A stretch of DNA of 64,000 nt, taken from NCBI GenBank assembly GCA_021740625.1, contig JAIOZK010000008.1, positions 27,627-91,626 on the forward strand, given 5' to 3'. The stretch is from Bacteroidales bacterium (GTDB lineage: Bacteria; Bacteroidota; Bacteroidia; Bacteroidales; JAIOZK01). A model generated the notes under the pieces. The model had not been told where the DNA came from, searched no databases, and saw nothing but the letters and a program-made list of their open reading frames with translations. A program made the position numbers and the translations under genes. Shown piece after piece: positions 47,380 through 60,328 of the stretch (position 1 is the stretch's first letter; every line of letters begins with the position of its first letter).

Positions 47380-48288
47380 CTACCACTTCTCCCCTTCTCC
47401 TGGCTGTTTTGGCTTTTGAATCACAAAGGTCCGGTTGATGTTAAACCCGAAATGTATATCACCTTTGCCCCAACTGCCGGTGGTTTCGGCAATGAAATAT
47501 TCTTCGATCATCCCGGCCGAGTTGCTGAAGAAAAGCTGGAAAACATGTCCGCCGGTTTCAATATCCAAACTCAAGGACAATGAGTTTTTGTATTGATCGG
47601 CTGTTTCTCCTGGTAAGAGATAAAAGTATTCCGCATTGATCGACATGCGCTGGGTGATCTTGAAACGGCCACCCGCCCCAAGGGCAAATACATCATGCTG
47701 GTCTTCTTTTGCAGGCACCAGATTGCGATGGATATAGGTTGGTGTGAGCTGCAGCGACAGGCTGTTGCTGAATTTCCGGGCGATCAGCAACTGGTGGGCG
47801 TATTGCATGCGGGAGGAAAAGAAATTGTTGCGTTCGGGATCGGTCCACCTCAACCCGTTGATAATGGTATTGCCGAAATAAGAAAGGCTGAAAGGCATGT
47901 TGCGGGCACCGGAGCTCTGTCGCAGGATCTTGTATTTGACAAATCCGTCAACGGTTTTTTTGAGTGAGCTTCTGCCGATGCCCATGGTCAGTCGTTCGGT
48001 AATCCCATATTCCAGTCCAAGATGTATGGTCGCCTGGTCCAGGCCGAAAAACTCGTAAGAGCCTGAGTTCAGCCTGCCAAATTGGTGGCTCACAATGAAC
48101 AGGAGGTTTCCTTTTGCAGGATTCTCAACAGATTGACCTTTGATGATGCGGGTTGCTTTAAAAGTAGCATAGGTATATTCAATGGTCTCCTCATCGTCTT
48201 CAAGCAGGCCCATCAGGTCGTCCTGTGCATGAACAGGATATACCAAGAACATCAGCAGGATTACGATTATGTATTGATTCTTTTTCAT
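47380..48288 (-). CDS. DUF5777-like outer-membrane beta-barrel
   Basis: Signal peptide; TFKATRII..QSVE, SHQFG, ETGGHVFQLFFSN, FGFNINRTF. Confidence 0.85.
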   Translation of the reverse strand: MKKNQYIIVILLMFLVYPVHAQDDLMGLLEDDEETIEYTYATFKATRIIKGQSVENPAKGNLLFIVSHQFGRLNSGSYEFFGLDQATIHLGLEYGITERLTMGIGRSSLKKTVDGFVKYKILRQSSGARNMPFSLSYFGNTIINGLRWTDPERNNFFSSRMQYAHQLLIARKFSNSLSLQLTPTYIHRNLVPAKEDQHDVFALGAGGRFKITQRMSINAEYFYLLPGETADQYKNSLSLSLDIETGGHVFQLFFSNSAGMIEEYFIAETTGSWGKGDIHFGFNINRTFVIQKPKQPGEGEKW

Positions 48289-48313
48289 GTTAAATTATTT
48301 ATTTAATATGCAT

Positions 48314-48364
48314 CTTTGTGTGCTTTTTGCCACCAAGGCACCAAGGCACAAAGTACACACAAAG
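48314..48364. repeat. Inverted repeat with cacaaag/caccaagg tandem units
   Basis: ctttgtgtg / cacacaaag arms enclosing caccaagg-caccaagg-cacaaag. Confidence 0.65.
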
Positions 48365-48368
48365 TTTT

Positions 48369-48743
48369 TTAATTGTTTGGTTTTCCTTCTTCTATCCAGA
48401 TCTTTAATTTTTTGATTGTACAATCATCAAGTTTTTGACCCGGAGGCATGAGCTGGGGATCACCCACCGGTTTCGAGATCCTTTCATACATTTTTTCCGC
48501 AGCCGCACTGATCTGATCATAGGTTTCCAGGTTCAGGTTTCCAGAGGGCGTAGCTCCGCTGTGGCAGCTCTGGCAAAAATTATCCGCCATGCTCAGGATA
48601 TCCCCCGAAAAGGTAATCTCTGTTGTGTCGCATATCTGTCCTGTAGGATATAACTCTTCTTCATTGTCATAATAACAGGAGGTCATCATTCCTCCAACCA
48701 TCATCAGCAATAAAATCAATTGAAATAATTTCCTCATCCTCAA
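48369..48743 (-). CDS. Monoheme cytochrome c lipoprotein
   Basis: Lipobox MTSC; CDT...CQSCH...MPP...C...WIEEG.PNN. Confidence 0.85.
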   Translation of the reverse strand: MRMRKLFQLILLLMMVGGMMTSCYYDNEEELYPTGQICDTTEITFSGDILSMADNFCQSCHSGATPSGNLNLETYDQISAAAEKMYERISKPVGDPQLMPPGQKLDDCTIKKLKIWIEEGKPNN

Positions 48744-48768
48744 ATTATTATTTGTTAATTATTGTTTG

Positions 48769-50031
48769 TTAATTATTCGGCATTCCTTCTTCAATCCAAA
48801 TCTCAACAGCTCTCCGGTCGCACACGGACCACTGGTTTCCATTCCGGGGCATGTTGGCATAGCCGGCTTCCCAGTTCAAAGCACCCATTAACTGGCCTGT
48901 TTCTGCCACGGCCACCAGGTCGGCATGGTTTTCAAGCGGAATTCCTCCTGAAGGATTCCCTCCGCTGTGACAGCCGAAGCATGAGTTCTGGACCATGGGC
49001 CAGACGGTTCCGCCAAAAGTCACATTCACCGTATCGCAATCTTCATCACAATGTAAATCCTGGGCTCCCTGTGCGATCCATTTATACACCATATTGATCT
49101 GTTCCTGTGTTAATGGGTTGTTGGGTGGTGGGGGCATGCGTTTGTCGGGATCGGTTTCGATCAATACTTCATACAGGTCACTGCCTTCGGGATCAAAAGG
49201 ATCTACATCTGCGGTAGCCATGACTGAGGCATAATCTGTTAACTGTACACCATCTTCCTGAGTTATATCATCATGGCAATTGGCCAGGGCGCAACTGGAT
49301 TGCAGCACAGGTAAAAGATCTTTCTCGAAATAAATCGTATCCGGGTGACAGGGATCACCCCCGGGCGGATTGTTGAAGGACGTATCGTTTACCCATTTCT
49401 CGATCTGTGCAATGGAACAGCTATCGAGTTTGCTTCCGTTCTGTGGCATTGGAACGTAACCGGGTTCATGTTTGATCACCCCGAGCAGGGCGCCGTTCTG
49501 GGCCAGTGTTGCCACCTGGCTGTAATCACTCAGGTCTATTCCTGCTTCAGGATTCTGTCCGCTGTGACATTCAAAGCATTTGGCCTGCAATATGGGTTGT
49601 ACCGTACCCGGAAATGTAAGGTTGCTGGTATCGCATTCAATTTCTTCAAAGGTGGTATCATTGATCCAGATCTCGATGGTCCTGATCTCACAGACATTAA
49701 GTGGCTGCTGGTCTTTCGGCATGGGGTAATAGCCTTCAAGCCGTTTCAGTGCACCCAGCAAGGTGCCATTCTGTGCGATGGCGGCTACATCACTGTAATT
49801 GGTCAGGTCGATACCATAATCGGGATTGGGGCCGCTGTGGCACGACAGGCAATGATTTTCAAATATGGGATAAACAGAACCCTTATAGCTTACGTTGATG
49901 GTATCACATGTGCCAGGTTCGTTCCCATTATTATCATCCGGCATAAAATCCTGCGGTTCATGCTCACAGGCAATGAGAAACAGTATCCCTGCAGCGAGGT
50001 AAAAAAGTTTGCGATTCGATCGTGATTTCAT
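48769..50031 (-). CDS. Lipoprotein with four tandem monoheme cytochrome c modules
   Basis: Lipobox LIAC; CLSCH, CFECH, CALANCH, CFGCH, each followed by an MP motif. Confidence 0.88.
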   Translation of the reverse strand: MKSRSNRKLFYLAAGILFLIACEHEPQDFMPDDNNGNEPGTCDTINVSYKGSVYPIFENHCLSCHSGPNPDYGIDLTNYSDVAAIAQNGTLLGALKRLEGYYPMPKDQQPLNVCEIRTIEIWINDTTFEEIECDTSNLTFPGTVQPILQAKCFECHSGQNPEAGIDLSDYSQVATLAQNGALLGVIKHEPGYVPMPQNGSKLDSCSIAQIEKWVNDTSFNNPPGGDPCHPDTIYFEKDLLPVLQSSCALANCHDDITQEDGVQLTDYASVMATADVDPFDPEGSDLYEVLIETDPDKRMPPPPNNPLTQEQINMVYKWIAQGAQDLHCDEDCDTVNVTFGGTVWPMVQNSCFGCHSGGNPSGGIPLENHADLVAVAETGQLMGALNWEAGYANMPRNGNQWSVCDRRAVEIWIEEGMPNN

Positions 50032-50840: not shown

Positions 50841-51284
50841 ATGATAACGAAAGAAACAAACATGAAAAAGCTGAAATCAATGATGATCATGCTGGCAATC
50901 CTGCAGACCTTTAATGGACTGAGCGGCCTGGCAGGAGGATTCGGCCTGATAAACGATCCCAGTGGTGTGGCACTTGCCATGAAACTCGAATGGCTTCAAT
51001 CTACACCTTTTCAATCTTATCTGATACCGGGACTAGTGTTATTTACCCTTAATGGCATTGGGAATATTATTGGTCTGGTATTGAGTTTGAAAAAACATCC
51101 CCGTTCGGGTCAGTATGCCGGACTTTTCGGCGCTGTTATGATGATCTGGATCATCGCCCAGGTTTCCTGGTTGGGATACCTGAGTTTTCTGCAACCTCTA
51201 TATTTCTCCACGGGATTATTGCAGCTTGTGATGGGTATAGCCCTGGATAGAGCACACAAAAAGAATTACACTGCAGTTTCATGA
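50841..51284 (+). CDS. Four-TM membrane protein (unknown function)
   Basis: Four hydrophobic segments; 'PFQSYLIPGLVLF' motif. Confidence 0.7.
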   Translation: MITKETNMKKLKSMMIMLAILQTFNGLSGLAGGFGLINDPSGVALAMKLEWLQSTPFQSYLIPGLVLFTLNGIGNIIGLVLSLKKHPRSGQYAGLFGAVMMIWIIAQVSWLGYLSFLQPLYFSTGLLQLVMGIALDRAHKKNYTAVS

Positions 51285-51667
51285 AAAACATAAAGATCAG
51301 CAGAAGAGAACAGCAAGGAGTATATGTGCTGGAAAAACTGGGATGGAAATTCCACCACATGGGCATCCCGACAAGCAAACCCATGAAAAATGAACGCTAC
51401 ATACCCCATCTGAAAATGTATGTTTCCGGCTTTGAAAGCAATCCCTATGGAATAGAATGGATGCGCTTTGAAGAAGATTGTCCACTGCCGGATATCATCA
51501 AAGAAGTCCCGCATCCGGCTTTCGAGCTTGAAAACCTGGATGCTGTTCTTTCCGAATTTGATTTTGATATTTTGGTGGAGCCCAATGCGCCCTCTGAGGC
51601 GGTCAGGGTTGCAATGATTTTACACAATGGAGCGCCGGTGGAGTTGATGGAGTTCTCGAAAAAGTAA
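51281..51667 (+). CDS. VOC/glyoxalase-like protein
   Basis: FHHMGIP, IEWMRF, PHPAFEL, APVELMEF. Confidence 0.65.
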   Translation: MKNIKISRREQQGVYVLEKLGWKFHHMGIPTSKPMKNERYIPHLKMYVSGFESNPYGIEWMRFEEDCPLPDIIKEVPHPAFELENLDAVLSEFDFDILVEPNAPSEAVRVAMILHNGAPVELMEFSKK

Positions 51668-51808: not shown

Positions 51809-52441
51809 TTATTTAATCAACTCCAGCCCTTCCTGCGCCGATTCATCCTCCGGACTGATAAGCAAAGTCTTTTGAAACAGCACTTTGGCTTCCCGGAGTT
51901 TTTCCAGTTTCAGCTTGGTCCAGGCCAGCATGATGACAGCATCGTAATCGAAAGGATAAAGATTGACTACCTTTTCAAAGTATTTTTCTGCTTTCTGGAA
52001 ATCTTCCCTGCCATAATAAATATTACCAAGCCTGTAATTGGCATAGGTATTTTCGGGATCAATTTCCAGGATCTTGTTGTACTGATTGATCACCTGTTCC
52101 CAGTTGCCCAGAGAGGATGCGGGATAAGCGATCCCAAAACGCGCTTCAATGGATATGGGTTTCAGGCTGATGGCCTTCTGATAATAGGCAATGGATTCGG
52201 TGAACAACCCGGAAAGATAGGCCAACCAACCCAGCCGGAGATTTATTTCGTAGGAGTTTTCATCATAAACTGTCTTCATGGTTTCCGATGCTTTGGAATA
52301 TTCTCCCTCTTTTTCCAGTTCGTAACTCAGGCTGAATGCCTCTTTAACTTCTTCAAATTGCTGGGCAAAAAGCATGGTACTGCTCAATAACAGCATCAAT
52401 AAAATCATGCTCACTTTGAAATATATTTTTACATTTTCCAT
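51809..52441 (-). CDS. Exported tetratricopeptide repeat protein
   Basis: Signal peptide; several TPR-like helical repeats. Confidence 0.85.
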   Translation of the reverse strand: MENVKIYFKVSMILLMLLLSSTMLFAQQFEEVKEAFSLSYELEKEGEYSKASETMKTVYDENSYEINLRLGWLAYLSGLFTESIAYYQKAISLKPISIEARFGIAYPASSLGNWEQVINQYNKILEIDPENTYANYRLGNIYYGREDFQKAEKYFEKVVNLYPFDYDAVIMLAWTKLKLEKLREAKVLFQKTLLISPEDESAQEGLELIK

Positions 52442-53910
52442 GTTAATCCTCCTATGATCATTTGTTCGGTATAATTCGTATTGATCGTATTATCGTTTGG
52501 CCTTTGCACAAAATCATTATAATAATGCAGCAGCCATCCTTCCTTTTCCCTGTACTGATATCGGATGCTTAACTCAAGTTTTTCCGTTAAAAGCATCAGC
52601 AGGTTAAGCTCTGCAATATATTTAATTTTATCGTACACATTGTAAACCACAAATGATTGGTCCCAATATGTGTTTTCGAGTTCTCCCTGCATGTATTTGC
52701 CTTCCAGCCAGATCCTTGGGAGTATTTTTAAACTGACCGATTGAGAGAACAGGAACTTATTCTCCTGGTGATTTTCTATGATATAATAAGAAAAACTTGT
52801 TGCACCGTAAAGATTCAGATTGCCGAAAGGGTAGTAATGAACACCGGCACTAAATCCAAGCTGATCTCTTAAATTCAGCCTCGAAAAGGATGCTGCCGCT
52901 GAAACTCCCAGGCATTGAAAATTCTTGTTTGCCGAAAGCCCGATGATGTAGTCATTCAAGACTGTATCCTTTTGATTGAAAATGTACTCATTTCTGATAT
53001 AATCGAAATAATTGTAGGTTCCATTAAATTTATCGTAATATTCGATTTCCTTTTCCTCATGGGGAATATAATTCACATCAAATTTCTTATAGTTTACCCG
53101 TAGATAATGCCCGTATGCAGCAATATTCCAGTCTTTTCCCAGATAAAAATCTGCTTTGAGGTATAGCTGGATTTGCCTGATATTCGACCGGAAAGTCATT
53201 TCTTCCTGCTGTAAAGTATAGTAGTAATCACTGGTAAAGGTAGTTTCAACAATGGAATCGAGTGCAAGATCCGTATAATAGCGGTATTTGTTCTTTTTCC
53301 TTCTTTGAATATAGCTCATACCGGAGTAAAGAGAAATGTCGGGTGACAGGTTCATTTTCAAACCGGCATGTGAATAAATTGAATTCCCTGTTAGCTGGTT
53401 TTCGAGGTAAATGGTGCTGTCGGTCCACTGCTTTTGCAAATCCCCGTTGTTTTTGTCATCATTGCCAAAAAGAATTCCTCCTTCTAAATAAATTTTATCC
53501 ACAAAACCCAGGTCATCGTCAATTTGCAGTTCCTTTCTCCGGGCTTCCGGGATCTTTTGAGCAAAATTCCGTGCTTGTTTATCCCTGTTCAGGTATAGGT
53601 TGGTATAATACAGGTATGTCAGCAGAGCATTGTCGTTCTGGTTGAATTCATATGCTTTTCCAAAATGCAGTTTTGCCTTAATATAATTTTTCATGGAATA
53701 ATAGGCCACCCCCATGCGATAGCGCAGGTAATAATAATCAAAACCCTGTTTGATCCCTGCCTTCCCCAGGTCAACCAGTGAGTCCCATTTTTCTTCCTGG
53801 TATAAACGATAGGTTTCCCTGTCCAGTGTCTGAAAGTCGATCTCCTTTGCAGCCATTAGATTCATGCACAATCCTGTCATCATTAAAACCAAAAAACCAT
53901 GTTTACTCAT
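52429..53910 (-). CDS. Exported protein with N-terminal TPR and probable C-terminal beta-barrel
   Basis: Signal peptide, TPR-like repeats, aromatic beta-strand pattern ending GGLTWKM. Confidence 0.65.
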   Translation of the reverse strand: MSKHGFLVLMMTGLCMNLMAAKEIDFQTLDRETYRLYQEEKWDSLVDLGKAGIKQGFDYYYLRYRMGVAYYSMKNYIKAKLHFGKAYEFNQNDNALLTYLYYTNLYLNRDKQARNFAQKIPEARRKELQIDDDLGFVDKIYLEGGILFGNDDKNNGDLQKQWTDSTIYLENQLTGNSIYSHAGLKMNLSPDISLYSGMSYIQRRKKNKYRYYTDLALDSIVETTFTSDYYYTLQQEEMTFRSNIRQIQLYLKADFYLGKDWNIAAYGHYLRVNYKKFDVNYIPHEEKEIEYYDKFNGTYNYFDYIRNEYIFNQKDTVLNDYIIGLSANKNFQCLGVSAAASFSRLNLRDQLGFSAGVHYYPFGNLNLYGATSFSYYIIENHQENKFLFSQSVSLKILPRIWLEGKYMQGELENTYWDQSFVVYNVYDKIKYIAELNLLMLLTEKLELSIRYQYREKEGWLLHYYNDFVQRPNDNTINTNYTEQMIIGGLTWKM

Positions 53911-56120
53911 AGAATTCCGTCTTTCGAGATATTGATCGCCTCTGTTTTTTGTTTCCCCTGTCGAATGACAAATTTTTTCAATTCATTCTCCCCGAAATAC
54001 ATTACAAAATTTAGAGCCCTCACCACCTTCCCTCCTATTTTTAATTCAGCAGTTGAATGCAGTTCAATCGCACTGCCAGAAATGTCTTCTGAACTCTTGT
54101 GATATAACAGGCTGTATTTTGGCCTGATGAAAATATAAAAAGGTGCAAGAAAATCCTGCAGTATCTTCCATCCTCCCAGCTTTATCCCGCTTACCGGGAT
54201 CTCATCCTCAACTTTCAATCCCCTGTAAAAACCATTCACAATCTTGAATGCACCCAGGTAGAAGTAATAAAGCAAGGTATTCTTCTTCCCCATGTAGTTG
54301 ACGAAGGAATGAATATCCCCTTCATTTTTCAGGTAAGCCTTTGCCCCGCTTGTTTTGCATAAAATGTAAGTATTGTTCAGGATATCCGTTTGTACTTCCC
54401 ATTCGAAAATTTGCTCACGACCGGATTCATCCCTGACTTCGAACTTCATCTTTTGTCCGGCAACAAAATGCAGGGCCTTTTTCAGGGTATCATTGGATCC
54501 TATGTTCGAGATTAACTGGTCTTTTTCAGGTAGGCGGAATGTTTTCAATTCATATTTTCCGGAGTGATTCAGGATATAATGTGACACAGGATAATCAACG
54601 GTTTTGGAACCCACATGTGGGGTTTCCTGCAACTGAAAATGTATATGAGGTTCCGGAGAGCGGCCCGAGTTGCCGCAATAAGCCAGCACATCGCCTTTTT
54701 TCACAAACTCCCCCCTGGTCACCTTGAATGAATCTGCTTTGATATGGCTGATCTGACTGAATACTTTTTCACGATGTTTGATCACAATGGAATTCCCCCA
54801 GTTCCTCTCCAGGTTCATATCCCCAATTTTATTGTCTTCAATGCCGTCCACGATTTCCTGCACATAGCCGTCGGCAGGGGCTACGATGGGTTTGTTATAG
54901 GCATAATAATCTTCCGGGGTATTTCCCCTGCCTTTGAATTTCTGACCTTCATCATCGAAAATCTCAAAATCCCAGGCATGTTTCCAGTCGGATTTGTGAG
55001 TCATTTCACCATCATGGGCCTGTGTCACTTTCCATTCTCCCCAGAAAGGCAATCCAATGGACACATGATCCAGGTCGTGAAAACGTTTGTGAAAATTTCT
55101 TTGCACGTACAGGTTCTTCTCCGGTGAAAACTGCTGCACCGCAACCAGTTCGGGTGATTTGAAGTATCTTTCCCTGAACTTCATCACATACAGGAAAAGC
55201 AATACGATGATATTGAAAGGCAGAGAAAAGATCGAAAGCTGGAAAATGGAGAACAATGCACTGGTGCTTGTGATGGTGATCGACAAAAGGGGTGTAAGCA
55301 GGATCACCCAGAGTACTGATAAACGTGATGGAACAACAAAGAAGCCACCCACGGCAATGGCCGAAAGGATGTAATTGAAACCGATGTAACTATAACTCAA
55401 CTCACTGATATCGGCGCCAATGAAATGATAGAAATAATAGGCTGCATAAAACCCGATGATCGAAAGCAGGAAAGCGATTCGGGAATATATCAGCAGACCC
55501 AGAGCAATCAGCAAGCCGGCAAACAAATGATACTGAAAAAAGATGGCTCCCAGTGAACGAAAATAGATCTTGATGCTTTCATGCAGGGGCAGGTTGTTGA
55601 ACCATTCGTAAATATTTACCATGGACAATCCGCCCAGCATGTACATTTCGTTCAGGTTATAAATACCCCTTTCACTGATCTCCAGCGCCGAGAATTCCCG
55701 TGCTGCCAGGGTCACCATCCAGATGCCGAACAAAAAAGAAATGCTCAGGTAGGGCAGCCCGTATTTGCCAATGATCCCTTCCAGTGAAACTGTGATGAAC
55801 AAAGTCAGAATGGCCGTAAAAATCAGGAATACATAAAACTCCACGGAAGGCTGGAAGAAAACACCAACCCCCAGTCCAACCAGCAAAGAATTGAATCCGT
55901 AATAGCCGGATCTGATATTGAATCGGTTAAATCCCAGCACAAAAGCCATGGCATTTGAAATGATCACGGCCAGCATCCCGCTGATACCGGCATAAAGATC
56001 GAAAAAGGAAACAATGATCAATGCCAGCGCAAAAATTTTATTGTTCGAGAAGAATACCTGTGTATAACTGTTTAACAGGCTTTCGATAAAGGCAGATATT
56101 TTGATCTTGCTGCTGTTCAT
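53907..56120 (-). CDS. Urea transporter (UT) domain fused to peptidase M23 domain
   Basis: N-terminal ~320 aa TM with QVFF, GYYGFNS.LVG, GAIFFQ, LPF motifs; M23 H...D (AWDFE) and GNSGRSPEPHIHFQ. Confidence 0.85.
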   Translation of the reverse strand: MNSSKIKISAFIESLLNSYTQVFFSNNKIFALALIIVSFFDLYAGISGMLAVIISNAMAFVLGFNRFNIRSGYYGFNSLLVGLGVGVFFQPSVEFYVFLIFTAILTLFITVSLEGIIGKYGLPYLSISFLFGIWMVTLAAREFSALEISERGIYNLNEMYMLGGLSMVNIYEWFNNLPLHESIKIYFRSLGAIFFQYHLFAGLLIALGLLIYSRIAFLLSIIGFYAAYYFYHFIGADISELSYSYIGFNYILSAIAVGGFFVVPSRLSVLWVILLTPLLSITITSTSALFSIFQLSIFSLPFNIIVLLFLYVMKFRERYFKSPELVAVQQFSPEKNLYVQRNFHKRFHDLDHVSIGLPFWGEWKVTQAHDGEMTHKSDWKHAWDFEIFDDEGQKFKGRGNTPEDYYAYNKPIVAPADGYVQEIVDGIEDNKIGDMNLERNWGNSIVIKHREKVFSQISHIKADSFKVTRGEFVKKGDVLAYCGNSGRSPEPHIHFQLQETPHVGSKTVDYPVSHYILNHSGKYELKTFRLPEKDQLISNIGSNDTLKKALHFVAGQKMKFEVRDESGREQIFEWEVQTDILNNTYILCKTSGAKAYLKNEGDIHSFVNYMGKKNTLLYYFYLGAFKIVNGFYRGLKVEDEIPVSGIKLGGWKILQDFLAPFYIFIRPKYSLLYHKSSEDISGSAIELHSTAELKIGGKVVRALNFVMYFGENELKKFVIRQGKQKTEAINISKDGIL

Positions 56121-57068
56121 TTAAAAACCGGCTTGTTCTTCAAATTTAAACAATTCCGAAAGCCTGAATTCCCTGAGGTGGTTTGCCAGTGCATCACCGC
56201 AAACAAATCCTGACTCCAGGATAAATCCGTTTAACAGATCATTGGGTATATCCTCGAAATAGAAATTCAGCAGCCGGACATTCGGTGCTGCATTTTTCCA
56301 GAGTTCATCAGCATCCTTTTCCTCCTCTGTTTTCAAAACTTCAAACAATGCAGGAGGGAGGTCTTTTTCATTGATCAGTTTTCGGCTGTCGGACAAAACA
56401 TAGGCGGCTTTCCCCGAATCATGAAACAGGCGTGCATAAAGATGCGTTCCTGTTTTGTTGACAAAGTGATCCGTAAAAATACCATCGCTGCCAAAGAGGG
56501 CCAGGTCCATTTCATCTGCAAAGCGGGCAACGGATGCATCGCTAATCACTCTGACCATAAACCCCATCTCCGCCAGCTTTTCAGCCTGTATTTTACCTTC
56601 TTCTGCCGGATAGGAAATCGTCTGGTAGATCCGTGGAAAAACAGACTTTTCCGACAATACCTCCAGAGTTTTCAAAACAACTGCAGTGTTGCTGTGCAAG
56701 AGTATGGTTTTCCGGGAAAGATCTTCTTTTTCCAGTAAGTGTTCTGCAATCTGTTGTTCAATTCCCTGCCATTGATTTAGATATTCTGCCAGGAAAGAGA
56801 GCAGTTCTTCTTTTGCAGCATCGCCCTTGCGCATCAATGCTTTGTCTTCAATCCGCAAAAAGAAGCTGTTGATAAAATGGAAAAGCACGATCATACCGGA
56901 ATGGGCTGAAAACAAACGATTCAACTGATCGACCAGGCGGCCGGTTTGCAGGGATGAGGACTTTCTCAAATGTTCCTGCAGTGCCTGAAGCGTTTTTTCC
57001 AGGATCCCTGTCGAACCGCTCCGGTTATCGTGCATGATTGCTTTCAGTTTTTCTTCCCAGTTATTCAT
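56121..57068 (-). CDS. eIF2B alpha/beta/delta-like (MtnA/R15P isomerase family) protein
   Basis: DNRSGS, LLHSNT, YPAEEG...AE.L, GSDGI....VNKTGT, FEDIP..L..GFI.E.G. Confidence 0.8.
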   Translation of the reverse strand: MNNWEEKLKAIMHDNRSGSTGILEKTLQALQEHLRKSSSLQTGRLVDQLNRLFSAHSGMIVLFHFINSFFLRIEDKALMRKGDAAKEELLSFLAEYLNQWQGIEQQIAEHLLEKEDLSRKTILLHSNTAVVLKTLEVLSEKSVFPRIYQTISYPAEEGKIQAEKLAEMGFMVRVISDASVARFADEMDLALFGSDGIFTDHFVNKTGTHLYARLFHDSGKAAYVLSDSRKLINEKDLPPALFEVLKTEEEKDADELWKNAAPNVRLLNFYFEDIPNDLLNGFILESGFVCGDALANHLREFRLSELFKFEEQAGF

Positions 57069-57072
57069 ATTG

Positions 57073-58431
57073 TTACAATTCGAATTTTTTCAAATGTTCC
57101 GGCACCTTTTCAAAATGGTTGATGCTTTCCATGCTTTCTTTTTCGCGGATCAGGTGGTGCTTGCCTTTCTCATCGATCATCACGATGTTGGGCCGCAATG
57201 TAATGAACTGCATCCATTGTGTCATATTGTAGGCACCCACGGAATGCACAACCACCTGCTCTCCTTTGTTCAGCAAGGGAAGGTTGGCGTTCTCACGGAT
57301 CACATCGATGTTCATGCACAAAGGACCGTAAAGCACCGTATCTTCGGTATACTGGGTAAAAGGCTGTGCTGGCGAAATTTTATGATCGTACCAGAAAGAG
57401 GTAAACAGCAGGTTTACACCAATATCGAGTATGGTGGTCCTTTTGCCATCTGCCAGCCGTTTATTGGAGATCACCGAGCCGATCAGGAAGCCGGCATCAT
57501 CGATTAGGGCACGGCCTGTTTCGAGTATCAGCAGGGGTAATTGATCCGGCTTGAAGTCGCTGTTGATCAAAGCACTGGTGATGGCCTCGGCAAAATCGTC
57601 GAAAGTGGGATTGGTATCCGATCCGGGCAGGTAAGCGCCTTTCAGGGTGTTTTTGGAAGAAAAACCGCCGCCCATGTCAATGTATTTTATTTCGTGATTG
57701 TATTTTTTCTGTATGCCCAGGGCAAGGTCAGCCATCTTATATGCCGCCACAGAATAGGCGTTGGCTGAAAGCATAAAGGTACCGATATGTGTATGCAAAC
57801 CGACCAGCTCCAGTTTCTCCGAACGCACAATCTTGTTGAGGGCATCCCAGGCCTGCCCGTTCTCGTAGTTGAAACCAAAACGATCCCACATGGGATATAT
57901 ACCGGTATCCATGTTCACACGAATGGCGACTTTGGGTTTTTTATTCATTTTGCCGGCCAGTTCGATGATGGTATACAACTCATCCAGGTGATCGATGTGG
58001 ATGAGGGAATCGTTTTCAATGGCCATTTCCAGGTCATCCACCGTTTTATCGGGACCGTTGAAAATGATCTTTTTTCCATCCACGCCGTTCAGCAACGCTT
58101 TCTGGTATTCAAATCCCGAAACCACCTCGGCCCAGGATCCTTCCTGGTGAAACACATTGCAAACCGCGCTCAGGTAATTGGTTTTATAAGACCATCCGAA
58201 TTGCACTTTGGGATAGCGCGTGCTGAATGCCTTTTTGGCTTCCCGGTAGGTTTTTCGTATGGTTTTCTCCGAGATCACAAAAAGTGGTGAACCATATTCC
58301 TTTACCAGCTCCTTCACCGCCACACCATCAATATGAGTCTTGGGTGTATATTCCGTTTTTGTACCGAATTTATTCGGCATATTGGTTTCCAGCTTCTTGA
58401 TCACCGGACGTTCGTATCTTTGTTTTTGCAT
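57073..58431 (-). CDS. Fold-type III PLP-dependent decarboxylase (LysA/BtrK-like)
   Basis: SYKTN PLP lysine, IFNGP, HTHIG, DMGGGF, ETGRAL, GPLCMNID, GAY. Confidence 0.88.
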   Translation of the reverse strand: MQKQRYERPVIKKLETNMPNKFGTKTEYTPKTHIDGVAVKELVKEYGSPLFVISEKTIRKTYREAKKAFSTRYPKVQFGWSYKTNYLSAVCNVFHQEGSWAEVVSGFEYQKALLNGVDGKKIIFNGPDKTVDDLEMAIENDSLIHIDHLDELYTIIELAGKMNKKPKVAIRVNMDTGIYPMWDRFGFNYENGQAWDALNKIVRSEKLELVGLHTHIGTFMLSANAYSVAAYKMADLALGIQKKYNHEIKYIDMGGGFSSKNTLKGAYLPGSDTNPTFDDFAEAITSALINSDFKPDQLPLLILETGRALIDDAGFLIGSVISNKRLADGKRTTILDIGVNLLFTSFWYDHKISPAQPFTQYTEDTVLYGPLCMNIDVIRENANLPLLNKGEQVVVHSVGAYNMTQWMQFITLRPNIVMIDEKGKHHLIREKESMESINHFEKVPEHLKKFEL

Positions 58432-58468
58432 GACTATTTTATGTGTTACTGATTATCTTATTTTTTCT

Positions 58469-58546
58469 ATTGTTCGATTGTTCCATTGTTTCATTTTTAT
58501 CCGATCTTGCTTTTAACAATAGAGCAATCGAACAATGGAACAATTG
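58469..58546. repeat. Inverted tandem 8-mer repeat inside the operon
   Basis: attgttcg-attgttcc-attgtttc vs aacaatag-agcaatcg-aacaatgg-aacaattg. Confidence 0.75.
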
Positions 58547-58549
58547 AAT

Positions 58550-59602
58550 TTACAATTCCCCATAAGTTGATATTTGTTCAAATTCTTTGATATCCACGAT
58601 CATATCGTATGCATACCGGATAAACATTTTACCGATATCGTAGGTTTTGTATGGCTCGACTTTCTCGCCCATGGCCAGGTTCACAAGGGCTTCTGGAATG
58701 TTTTGCCCGACACCTACTGCCAGATAGACCCATGCAGGAATTCTTGGATTGATCTCCAGGATATAGAAATCATTCTTTTTGTCCTTCATCAGTTCAAGTT
58801 CAAAACCGCCCCGCCATTTGGTCTGGCTGATAAACTTATCCGTGAGTTCCAGCATCTTTTTATCTGCAATGGAAATGCCGCCCCATGCTTTTCCTTTATC
58901 CGTGATGTATTGCTTTCGCATGGGTACGGCAGAAATGGTGTTCCCTTTTCCATCCCCCAGTCCTGTCACATTGTATTCTGTACCATGTACAAACTCCTGT
59001 ATGATGATGGGCAACCCCCATTTGGCTGAAATCTTGTTAAAAGCACTTTTGGCCTGCTCCGAATTGTACACAATGCTGGCATCATAATACTTTCCTTTTA
59101 CCACCAGCGGGTATTCAATACCTTCCGGCAAACGATAAAGATCATTCACTGTATAAATGGGTTCACTTCGGGGCACATGCAAATCGTACTTTTTGCCGAA
59201 TTCCGGGAGGTTGTGTTTGTGTCTCTCTTCAAATTGTTTCATGGTCGGTAAAAAAGTATGCATGCCGATCTCCTTCAATCTTTTCTCAAGTTTGATAAAG
59301 GAATACAATTCCGCATCAAAATTGGGAATGATCATATCGATCTTTTCGATGGAACTGATGTGTTCAAGTCTTTTGAAAAGATTCTCAATGCCGGTGGTAG
59401 GATAAGGCACATGATAGGTTTTATCCACCAGGTCGTGCATGTAGATGCCCGGCTCAAGCGATTCGTATGCCAGGCCGATGATCCGCACATCAAAAGAAGC
59501 CGCCTCCCGTAAAGCCCTGATCACCGCTACACCCGGTCCCGGACTGTCGATCGCATTCAATCCGCTGACAGCAATGTTATACTTCTTTTTCATTGTTTTC
59601 AT
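58550..59602 (-). CDS. ATP-grasp ligase (carboxylate-amine ligase family)
   Basis: YPLVVKG, IIQEFV.G.EY, FELE....FYILEINPR. Confidence 0.9.
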   Translation of the reverse strand: MKTMKKKYNIAVSGLNAIDSPGPGVAVIRALREAASFDVRIIGLAYESLEPGIYMHDLVDKTYHVPYPTTGIENLFKRLEHISSIEKIDMIIPNFDAELYSFIKLEKRLKEIGMHTFLPTMKQFEERHKHNLPEFGKKYDLHVPRSEPIYTVNDLYRLPEGIEYPLVVKGKYYDASIVYNSEQAKSAFNKISAKWGLPIIIQEFVHGTEYNVTGLGDGKGNTISAVPMRKQYITDKGKAWGGISIADKKMLELTDKFISQTKWRGGFELELMKDKKNDFYILEINPRIPAWVYLAVGVGQNIPEALVNLAMGEKVEPYKTYDIGKMFIRYAYDMIVDIKEFEQISTYGEL

Positions 59603-59840
59603 CTATTATTTGATATTGCTTCAGCATACTGATGAAATCATTGAAATCCTTTTCCAGGGTTTCGGCATCCACCTGGTATTTTTCAAGCAATTCCTTTTCA
59701 ATCTCATCAAAACTTTTGTTTTCCTTCAGCATATTGAAGATCTCGGCTGCAACCGGATTCACGGAATAGGATTCACCTGTAATGGGGTTGAACACAAATC
59801 CCGATTCGCTGACGGCCACATTGGATTTAATTTTTGTCAT
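59577..59840 (-). CDS. PqqD-family protein (RiPP recognition element)
   Basis: 88 aa; FVFNPITGESYSVNPVAAEIFNML...LLEKYQVD...EKDF..FI..L winged-helix pattern. Confidence 0.85.
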   Translation of the reverse strand: MTKIKSNVAVSESGFVFNPITGESYSVNPVAAEIFNMLKENKSFDEIEKELLEKYQVDAETLEKDFNDFISMLKQYQIIDENNEKEV

Positions 59841-59974
59841 TGAATAAAATGTTAAAGATTCATTTTGCAAGGATAAGATGAATTCAGCAAAAAGCTGTTA
59901 TAAAATTTTCAGAAAGATGTATAAGATTTCCGGCTTTTCAACTCTTGATGTAAAATCAAAAGAGCAGCTATTAC

Positions 59975-60133
59975 AAAATGAACTACCCCGCCGCATAGCA
60001 AAGAGGTATCATCTTAAATGTGCCACAGAGCGGCGGGGAACCTGACCGTCAGGCAAGTTAAACCCATGAGTTCACTCAACTATCGCTCGGGATCCCTGCC
60101 TCGCCGTCAGGCATGGAGTTCGGCTAAATGATT
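59975..60133. repeat. Dispersed hairpin element, copy 2 (longer)
   Basis: Shares aaaatgaactaccccgccgca with 30278; ccccgccgc (59986-59994) pairs with gcggcgggg (60030-60038). Confidence 0.65.
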
Positions 60134-60328
60134 TTGATTACAAAATCATGGTCTCACTGATTTAACTGGCAGGCATGTTTTTTCTAATCAGCAACCCATA
60201 TCTCTAAATAGAGTCTGTTCATAAACTTATTGTACTTCCCACATTCCTCTATAAAAGCAATTTGTTGCATAAAAAATCAAAAATCTTTAACTTTACGGAA
60301 CCTTTCTTTGGGGGGATAGATAAATTTT

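Follow-up and report, generated by a model that had tools for sequence, protein, structure and literature searches.

A conserved, uncharacterised six-gene cassette of Bacteroidota that encodes a PqqD-like RRE, an ATP-grasp ligase, a PLP decarboxylase and a urea transporter-M23 fusion

In the butirosin pathway of Bacillus circulans (BtrI/BtrJ/BtrK), an ATP-grasp enzyme and a decarboxylase of the diaminopimelate decarboxylase (DAPDC) clade work on a distally attached amino acid, with a small accessory protein alongside. The same order of events, in which ligation comes first and the conjugate is then decarboxylated, is found in the rhizoferrin pathway of Francisella (FslA/FslC, or FigA/FigC) and in the pathways of SbnH and AcsE. 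FigC, SbnH, AcsE, MccE and BtrK fall in one clade with DAPDC, and the members other than DAPDC act on an amino acid that is conjugated at its distal group (PMC7857480). Recognition elements of ribosomally synthesised and post-translationally modified peptides (RiPP recognition elements, RREs) that occur as discrete proteins in lasso peptide pathways read the leader motif [Y/W]xxPx[L/V/I/F/A] (PMC13381572). A stretch of 64,000 nt from a Bacteroidales bacterium (GCA_021740625.1, contig JAIOZK010000008.1; the whole stretch is called the window below) was analysed, and it carries one copy of a six-gene cassette that is conserved among Bacteroidota (as delimited by GTDB, including Ignavibacteria, Kapabacteria and Chlorobia) and has not been characterised. 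The cassette encodes, in this order, a PqqD-like RRE, an ATP-grasp ligase, a pyridoxal phosphate (PLP) decarboxylase, a urea transporter (UT) fused to an M23 metallopeptidase domain (UT::M23), a protein of 440-500 aa and a tetratricopeptide repeat (TPR) protein of about 200 aa, and the same order was seen in unrelated assemblies. A full-text search of the literature returned no paper describing PqqD, ATP-grasp, urea transporter, M23 and decarboxylase together; the cassette is real, conserved and undescribed in the searched literature. We tentatively propose that it encodes an adaptor-assembled pathway of ligation and then decarboxylation, whose product, small and polar, would be released at a channel of the urea type.

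Compared with the butirosin pathway, the cassette has an RRE in place of the acyl-carrier protein, and butirosin biosynthesis has neither a channel-peptidase fusion nor outer-membrane parts. The siderophore pathways rely on a synthetase of the NRPS-independent siderophore (NIS) type and on export by the major facilitator superfamily (MFS), whereas the cassette uses an ATP-grasp enzyme and UT::M23. The initial annotation of this DNA had already pointed to the logic of BtrJ and BtrK. The part of that reading which fits is the sequence of ligation and decarboxylation, as expected for the clade of FslC, SbnH, AcsE, MccE and BtrK. The part which does not is the BtrI-like carrier: no acyl-carrier protein was present in any locus, and the small protein has the PqqD fold.

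The seven minus-strand open reading frames (ORFs) with overlapping or abutting ends that had been described before were all confirmed (Table 1; coordinates are positions in the whole window). The PqqD-like ORF extends over 59577-59870 with its likely start at the ATG at 59840, and overlaps the ATP-grasp gene by 26 nt. The decarboxylase gene follows after 118 nt, the sole larger gap in the operon. The next gene, for an eIF2B-like protein, begins 4 nt further on (57068/57073) and abuts the UT::M23 gene (56120/56121), which in turn overlaps the gene for the 493 aa protein by 4 nt (53907/53910); the last overlap, with the gene for the 210 aa TPR protein, is 13 nt (52429/52441). Judged by this packing, the seven genes appear to form a real operon. 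Every domain assignment was above the Pfam gathering score. No NCBIfam equivalog passed its own cut-off for any of the seven proteins, and therefore none of them belongs to a named, curated functional family. No pqq genes were present in the cassette.

To describe the distribution, presence was scored in 301 Bacteroidota genomes from 144 genera, and the seven proteins were compared by tblastn with 20 loci from the sampled genomes and 80 loci from named genomes. The ATP-grasp gene was found in 26 of the 301 genomes (about 9%), covering 21 of the 144 genera, and the set was absent from 91%. The decarboxylase orthologue occurred in exactly the same 26 genomes and was always adjacent; its scores in this sample fall from 471 bits for the orthologues to 147 bits for ordinary LysA-type paralogues. 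In loci whose contig reaches far enough for the gene in question, the PqqD gene was present upstream of the ATP-grasp gene in 77/77, the decarboxylase gene in 71/71 and the UT::M23 gene in 55/57. The 210 aa TPR protein was encoded in 46/49 and in 17/20 loci. The gene for the 493 aa protein was found in 46/49 of the closer loci and was missing or unrecognisable in the most distant ones. Per-gene co-occurrence of the six genes in the fetched loci was 94-100%, so the expectation that the genes travel together in other genomes was borne out. The minimal core consists of PqqD, ATP-grasp, decarboxylase and UT::M23, in most cases together with the TPR protein. A scan of genome contigs showed that at least 597 species genomes, nearly all of them metagenome-assembled, carry a relative of the ATP-grasp. 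The carriers include Bacteroidales, Lentimicrobiaceae, Prolixibacteraceae/Draconibacterium, Rikenellaceae, Cyclobacteriaceae, Flavobacteriales, Chitinophagales, Ignavibacteria, Kapabacteria and Chlorobiota. Homologues of the ATP-grasp number in the thousands, with >70% identity throughout the top 120 clusters.

Table 1. Features of the cassette in the window, with positions, strand and supporting remarks
Feature	Position	Strand	Remarks
PqqD-like stand-alone RRE	59577..59840	-	87 aa from ATG 59840; PF05402; upstream TTG at 59870 possible
ATP-grasp ligase	58550..59602	-	350 aa; PF15632 (ATPgrasp_Ter)
PLP decarboxylase, alanine-racemase fold	57073..58431	-	452 aa; DAPDC/FslC/BtrK clade; Orn_Arg_deC_N 103 bits, Orn_DAP_Arg_deC 45.9 bits
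N-terminal extension of the decarboxylase	58342..58431	-	about 30 residues; leader-like motif [YF]x[RK]Px[IVL]...G..xK[FY]G
eIF2B-like protein	56121..57068	-	315 aa; PF01008 71.1 bits; between decarboxylase and UT::M23
UT::M23 fusion, whole ORF	53907..56120	-	
UT channel domain	55161..56120	-	fusion residues 1-320; PF03253 191.5 bits
UT-M23 linker	55059..55160	-	residues 321-354 (conserved from K314); pLDDT <50 at 310-334 and 342-350
M23 metallopeptidase domain	54561..55058	-	residues ~355-520; PF01551 54.9 vs 28.7 bits
C-terminal beta-rich domain	53910..54560	-	residues 521-737; all-beta model, pLDDT mostly 85-92
Outer-membrane protein	52429..53910	-	493 aa; signal peptide, TPR arm (26-127), beta-barrel (137-492); AlphaFold2 pLDDT 90.3
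Secreted TPR protein	51809..52441	-	210 aa; multiple TPR Pfam matches; hydrophobic N-terminus ending ..LFAQQ, signal peptide
Divergent intergenic region between cassette and B12/Kai operon	59871..60328	.	presumed promoter; dispersed short repeats; no Rfam match

Of the seven-gene unit proposed in the initial annotation, six genes stand as the conserved cassette. The seventh, for the eIF2B-like protein, is an accessory that only 4 of about 100 loci carry. It was absent from the first 23/23 loci, including the nearest relative of the window, and was found at the same slot elsewhere only in three loci (L055, L057 and L058), with 33-37% identity. Homologues occur in 4/301 genomes: one copy (G079) lies in an unrelated context, and another genome (G283) has its homologue on a different contig from the cassette. 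Core membership of this gene was therefore rejected. The protein itself passed the superfamily model PF01008 alone, as ribose-1,5-bisphosphate isomerase (TIGR00511) gave 46.2 bits against a cut-off of 314 and MtnA (TIGR00512) gave 23 against 279.

The decarboxylase scored 223.3 bits against LysA (TIGR01048; cut-off 297.9) and 227 bits against FslC/FigC (NF041039; cut-off 500). Its top PDB matches were FslC (4e-54), archaeal and bacterial DAPDC (2e-42) and BtrK (1e-27, about the ninth-best). The catalytic residues K83, H213/H215, the GGG motif, E304, R307, C372 and Y401 are invariant in the family. The citrate-binding residues H357 and R387 of FslC, on the other hand, are replaced by I375 and Q405, which are invariant within the family. 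The DAP-specific pocket, which we take to be the specificity-helix Arg and the CESxD loop, is also changed: the Arg is T344 and the loop reads CMNID, both family-invariant. Judged from these residues, the decarboxylase appears catalytically intact and is neither LysA nor FslC, with specificity residues of its own. That it might simply be the housekeeping LysA of the organism, the case which the initial annotation had set against its own reading, is in general not supported: the score is below the LysA cut-off, the DAP-specific residues are lost, and the enzyme occurs only inside the cassette, in the 26/301 genomes. A caveat is that no lysA scoring above the cut-off was found elsewhere in the genome, which is 95% complete. 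Its other LysA-like gene (C45:47160-48719; 519 aa, with an internal insertion) reached 236 bits against the cut-off of 297.9; this gene is rare (1/81 genomes of the class) and is no proof that the cassette enzyme differs from LysA.

The lack of a canonical lysA elsewhere could also be taken to favour a chance juxtaposition of housekeeping genes (lysA, urea transporter, a gene like that for carbamoyl-phosphate synthase (CPSase), TPR genes) that have no joint function. The public names of the proteins, 'urea transporter', 'carbamoyl-phosphate synthase large subunit' and 'ATP-grasp domain-containing protein', would agree with such a view. However, about 100 independent loci from many families show this gene order, and because of this recurrence the arrangement is far beyond chance. 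Moreover, the co-distribution of 26/26 in the 301 genomes, the overlapping stop and start codons and the active sites unlike LysA all speak against it. Chance juxtaposition is effectively refuted by the co-occurrence data, and we regard it as extremely improbable.

The PqqD-like protein scored 53 bits against PF05402 (cut-off 23.4), which places it in the PqqD/RRE superfamily. None of the models for named PqqD subfamilies reached its cut-off. The PqqD model of the pyrroloquinoline quinone (PQQ) pathway (TIGR03859) gave 24.1 bits against 46, and the lasso B1 RRE models NF033530 and NF033536 gave 32.5 against 70 and 29.8 against 80. With the profile of the RRE family, the nearest solved relatives were the lasso B1 RREs TbiB1 (1.7e-12) and TfuB1 (7e-8), well ahead of PqqD proper. 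The earlier assignment as a stand-alone RRE was right. The strand region of the RRE is conserved (N-[ILV]-A-x-S-[ED]-x-G-F-x-F ... T-G-[ED]-[ST]-[FY]) and the C-terminus is variable. A role as a LysW-like carrier by way of an acidic C-terminus was considered and rejected, as the C-terminus varies in both length and sequence.

A candidate for what the RRE reads was found on the decarboxylase. The N-terminal tail motif of this enzyme was kept in 24/24 orthologues and precedes the alignment start of all solved relatives; it was absent from 4/4 outgroup LysA-like enzymes, and within the Bacteroidota sample it was restricted to cassette enzymes (26/26 against 0/4). For the core form, Y[ED][RK]Px[IVL], no substantial ORF of the genome other than the decarboxylase has an N-terminal match, the remaining N-terminal matches being internal to long ORFs or in ORFs of <55 aa. 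The tail pattern matches the leader motif of the lasso RREs. The nearest solved relatives of the cassette RRE are the lasso RREs TbiB1, TfuB1/FusB1 and PbaB1, together with LppB, and the leader pattern is invariant on the decarboxylase tail. Unlike the lasso systems, the cassette has no lasso cyclase, B2 protease or precursor peptide, and the candidate leader is part of a 452 aa enzyme. Comparison of the loci turned up no conserved small ORF within or next to the cassette, and in compact loci such as L001 a precursor ORF would not fit. The observation in the initial annotation that the window lacks a small precursor gene therefore held. Because the decarboxylase tail is the only conserved leader-like sequence available and a precursor gene could not be accommodated in the compact loci, docking of the RRE on this tail is the interpretation that we infer.

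These data also bear on a classical RiPP pathway with a precursor that is very small or encoded elsewhere, in which the RRE would present the peptide, M23 would cut the leader and the envelope proteins would export the product. The RRE stands alone and its translation is coupled to that of a modifying enzyme, and the combination of RRE, peptidase and ATP-dependent amide-forming enzyme mirrors the lasso logic; M23 enzymes can also cut Gly-rich bonds. Against it stand the missing small ORF, the compact loci and a UT pore that cannot pass a peptide. It is also hard to see what a PLP decarboxylase of the free-amino-acid type would do on a ribosomal peptide, unless an amino acid were first attached via its side chain. 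An unlinked precursor peptide with the tail motif was also looked for and rejected, as no convincing small ORF with the core motif was found in the genome. We consider the RiPP explanation unlikely.

The ATP-grasp protein belongs to its superfamily by PF15632 (39.7 bits against 29.1) and PF02655 (31.9 against 23.2). E283, N285 and R287, in the 'EINPR' stretch of the Mg-ATP motif, are invariant across the family, among other residues. No NCBIfam model was above its cut-off. The CPSase annotation does not hold, with 31.6 bits against a cut-off of 1027 for the CPSase large subunit (TIGR01369), and the PRK12767 models gave 56-93 against 218-390. The solved relatives are only CPSase- or carboxylase-type domains and the orphan structure 2pn1; therefore the substrates of the ATP-grasp are not readable from homology.

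The UT part of the fusion has the full 10-helix fold. It was aligned to dvUT and human UTs over residues 7-323, and UT structures were the top Foldseek matches of its model. The bacterial urea-transporter equivalog TIGR03441 gave 118 bits against a cut-off of 274.6. The pore was mapped onto the residues named for hUT-A2 (PMC11589576). Residues Q67, V68, F70, F179, F287 and F341 of hUT-A2 correspond to Q21, V22, F24, F129, F248 and F302, Y123 to F76, T176 to S126, T338 to S299 and Q231 (Q(Pb)) to an invariant A192. In terms of the urea motif Q(Pa)-T(5a)-T(5b)-Q(Pb) (PMC11589576), Q21 is kept, S126 and S299 stand for the two Thr, and A192 stands for Q(Pb). The pore lining is therefore largely kept, with three changes that are all to smaller side chains and are invariant or nearly so. 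Thus the cassette UT shares the fold and most pore residues with dvUT, UT-A and UT-B and differs from them in its fusion to M23 and a beta domain, in the change of Q(Pb) to Ala and in the change of both pore Thr to Ser. No urease or urea-metabolism genes were present in the cassette.

The score of the M23 part against PF01551 shows membership of that family. Residues H375, D384, H459, H492 and H494 are invariant, and the first motif has a non-canonical spacing. The M23 part of the structure model was confident and matched M23 folds, with a TM-score of 0.79 (normalised to the target) for EnpA. The following C-terminal beta domain is conserved across the family, with a predicted local distance difference test (pLDDT) score of 62-82 over residues ~640-690, and matched no Pfam family even at E <= 1. 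No transmembrane (TM) segment was predicted after residue 313 of the fusion, and a positive cluster, KFRERYFK, lies directly after the last TM helix. The N- and C-termini of UTs are intracellular (PMC11589576). Because M23 directly follows the last UT helix (5b), has no further TM segment and is attached to a channel whose termini are cytoplasmic, the M23 and C-terminal beta domains most likely face the cytoplasm, as far as this can be predicted from sequence. A peptidase fused at the cytoplasmic side of a passage is also seen in the peptidase-containing ABC transporters (PCATs) with a cytoplasmic C39 domain. This likeness is by analogy only: C39 and ABC domains are unrelated to M23 and UT, and the cassette has no evident peptide cargo and a pore fit for urea-sized solutes.

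The linker between the two parts (residues 314-354; 55059-55181; KFRER..P.....Q...PE.N.Y.......R) was predicted to be disordered. It contains about ten invariant residues (K314, F315, R316, P323, Q329, P333, E334, N336, Y338 and R346) despite its low pLDDT, and may be a second docking motif.

The orientation of M23 bears on another explanation, cell-envelope remodelling, in which M23 would act on periplasmic peptidoglycan and an amine-bearing wall precursor would be made by the cytoplasmic enzymes. M23 enzymes are classically peptidoglycan endopeptidases, and partial NCBIfam matches to Pgp3, MepM and ShyA were seen. Periplasmic TPR and outer-membrane components are present, and 11 loci have genes for PBP2 and RodA upstream. 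However, the scores against these and other peptidoglycan M23 models were all far below the cut-offs (15-45 bits against 242-900). The PBP2/RodA adjacency is confined to one subclade with a regulator between, and looks like lineage synteny. Moreover, the placement directly after helix 5b with KFRERYFK and no further TM segment, together with the cytoplasmic C-termini of UTs, is against a periplasmic M23. We regard envelope remodelling as quite improbable, and the cell-wall modification that had been suggested initially is unlikely. The suggested movement of a peptide across both membranes is likewise doubtful, as a peptide would not fit through the urea-type pore.

The last two proteins of the cassette had been described as two TPR proteins. 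This was correct for the 210 aa protein, while the 493 aa protein, according to its AlphaFold2 model, consists of a TPR arm and an outer-membrane beta-barrel. Foldseek matches of this model were FadL, OmpG, BcsC, AlgE and other outer-membrane barrels, and no Pfam family matched the barrel. A periplasmic TPR arm with an outer-membrane barrel is likewise found in PgaA, BcsC, AlgK/AlgE and Slam; BcsC and AlgE, as noted, were matched by the fold of the model. Unlike PgaA, BcsC, AlgE and Slam, the cassette barrel is smaller and generic (FadL and OmpG match best), and comes without a sequence family or a polysaccharide synthase. The predicted barrel and the secreted TPR protein support the envelope-spanning layout that had been supposed earlier.

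Returning to the proposed ligate-then-decarboxylate pathway, the steps could be as follows. The RRE, which is translationally coupled to the ATP-grasp, would dock on the decarboxylase tail through [YF]x[RK]Px[IVL] and so assemble a ligase-decarboxylase complex with no separate precursor peptide; the tight coupling of the RRE and ATP-grasp genes itself implies a complex. The ATP-grasp would form an amide between a carboxylate and an amino acid, or load an amino acid via its side chain. Given its clade, the decarboxylase is predicted to use a conjugated substrate, of a kind that the ATP-grasp could provide, and it would remove the free alpha-carboxyl of the conjugate as FslC, SbnH, MccE and BtrK do with theirs. 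M23, tethered at the cytoplasmic mouth of the UT-type channel, may then hydrolyse the amide bond and release a small polar amine or amide. This product would leave through the slightly widened UT pore (T to S twice, Q to A once) and then pass the periplasmic TPR protein and the outer-membrane TPR-barrel. That an intact peptidase is predicted to sit where an intact small-solute pore opens to the cytoplasm suggests such a release and exit of a small polar product.

Several points weigh against this proposal. The docking of the RRE on the tail is read from sequence. The ATP-grasp has no characterised close relative among the solved structures compared. The UT part of the structure model is of low quality (pLDDT 50-80). 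The cytoplasmic placement of M23 is argued from the topology of solved UTs and the positive-inside rule, and M23 domains classically lie outside the cytoplasm. Polymers or lipoproteins are the usual cargo of outer-membrane proteins of the TPR-barrel kind, and a urea-sized product is a poor fit with this.

A bolder form of the proposal, which we hold to be doubtful, is that an RRE outside RiPP biosynthesis would read a leader in the decarboxylase tail and direct the ATP-grasp, either within a metabolon or to load the substrate on the tail as a built-in carrier, and that the product would be freed by the channel-docked cytoplasmic M23. If true, RREs would act beyond ribosomal precursor peptides by docking on a leader built into an enzyme, an M23 peptidase would have a cytoplasmic role, and bacterial UT channels would have a function beyond urea uptake. 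A small amine or amide metabolite would then be made by many Bacteroidota of sediment, groundwater and digesters, and a previously unrecognised channel-docked, envelope-spanning biosynthetic machine would operate in hundreds of species. With about 9% of the sampled Bacteroidota and at least 597 species genomes, the cassette itself is widespread. It is also strongly conserved, the ATP-grasp showing >70% identity in many families, and it stands under misleading generic annotations.

The neighbourhoods of the cassette were also compared. The sole strongly recurrent neighbour was a same-strand AraC-type regulator directly upstream of PqqD, found in 24/86 loci (28 in the census). It has about 180 aa (e.g. 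L001:9131-9673, L005:9023-9613), with an N-terminal ferredoxin-like domain that carries a conserved xCxCC motif. The presence of this Cys-motif regulator before about a quarter of the loci suggests inducible expression. Assignment of its sensor domain to HMA was rejected, as the match was sub-threshold (E 0.04) and was seen in one of four proteins. Genes for efflux of the resistance-nodulation-division (RND) type lie near the cassette in 6 loci, and these RND neighbours, like PBP2/RodA, look like lineage synteny. In one locus, L003, the same type of regulator precedes an RND CzcA/CzcB efflux pair instead.

The regulator and the RND genes would find a place in a metallophore or polyamine-type amide pathway, in which the ATP-grasp would stand in for the NIS synthetase, the decarboxylase would trim the product as FslC and SbnH do, the envelope proteins would export it, the RRE would be an adaptor only, and the AraC-type regulator would sense metal or thiol. 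Such a metal-linked pathway is suggested by the decarboxylase, whose nearest characterised relative is FslC and whose clade includes the siderophore enzymes SbnH and AcsE (PMC7857480). It is also suggested by the Cys motif and the weak HMA match of the regulator, and by the CzcA/CzcB-type efflux genes and a ZIP transporter that flank L003. On the other hand, the citrate-binding residues of FslC are not kept, a metallophore is too large for the UT pore, the HMA match is below threshold, and the roles of the RRE and M23 are left unexplained. Moreover, neither an AraC-type regulator nor a metal gene lies beside the cassette in this window. We consider this explanation rather unlikely, although somewhat less so than the RiPP pathway.

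The junction between the decarboxylase and UT::M23 genes, where the eIF2B-like gene sits in the window, is a hot spot for accessory genes across the loci. A class-I enzyme of the PLP aminotransferase fold was found there in four loci (L053:7638-8789, L056:13339-14499, L062:12184-13344 and L065:12180-13328). Among NCBIfam models it comes closest to GntC, a guanitoxin cyclodehydratase, with 173-216 bits (cut-off 415), and a methionine aminotransferase model is also similar, below its cut-off. In two loci a sensor histidine kinase occupies the slot, both of which also have the aminotransferase-fold insert. Other inserts are a flippase-like membrane protein, DUF302 and a sigma-factor-like gene. 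The DUF302 gene of L003 lies just upstream of UT/M23. In the same locus (L003:12967-15154) UT and M23 were called as separate genes; the tblastn halves are contiguous in different frames, and judged from this the split is a frameshift, pseudogene or assembly error and not a natural one.

In the window, promoter-like sites in the operon region were not above shuffled sequence, and the promoter and terminator scans were uninformative. Rfam showed no riboswitch or RNA family in the cassette or its leader, the sole match being a sub-threshold miRNA model. Segments of 35-60 nt from the divergent intergenic region recur about 20 times in the genome, on many contigs. The GC-rich stretch at 59975-60125, upstream of PqqD, belongs to a dispersed intergenic repeat family like repetitive extragenic palindromes or miniature inverted-repeat transposable elements (REP/MITE-like), with no Rfam match. 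An RNA element at this stretch was rejected, since it is a dispersed repeat and its folding is unexceptional (z = -1.2). The divergent upstream neighbour, from 60329 onward, is a B12-sensor/Kai operon that is unrelated to the cassette. Downstream, the convergent plus-strand ORFs 51281-51667 and 50841-51284 follow immediately and bound the operon on its 3' side. The nearest relative of the window, L030, in which the ATP-grasp is 90% identical, has the same downstream neighbours, a cytochrome c lipoprotein and a DUF5777 barrel (L030:17451-20100; window 47380-50031). Its upstream side differs, with a protein carrying a type IX secretion system (T9SS) tail and an AraC regulator where the window has the Kai operon.

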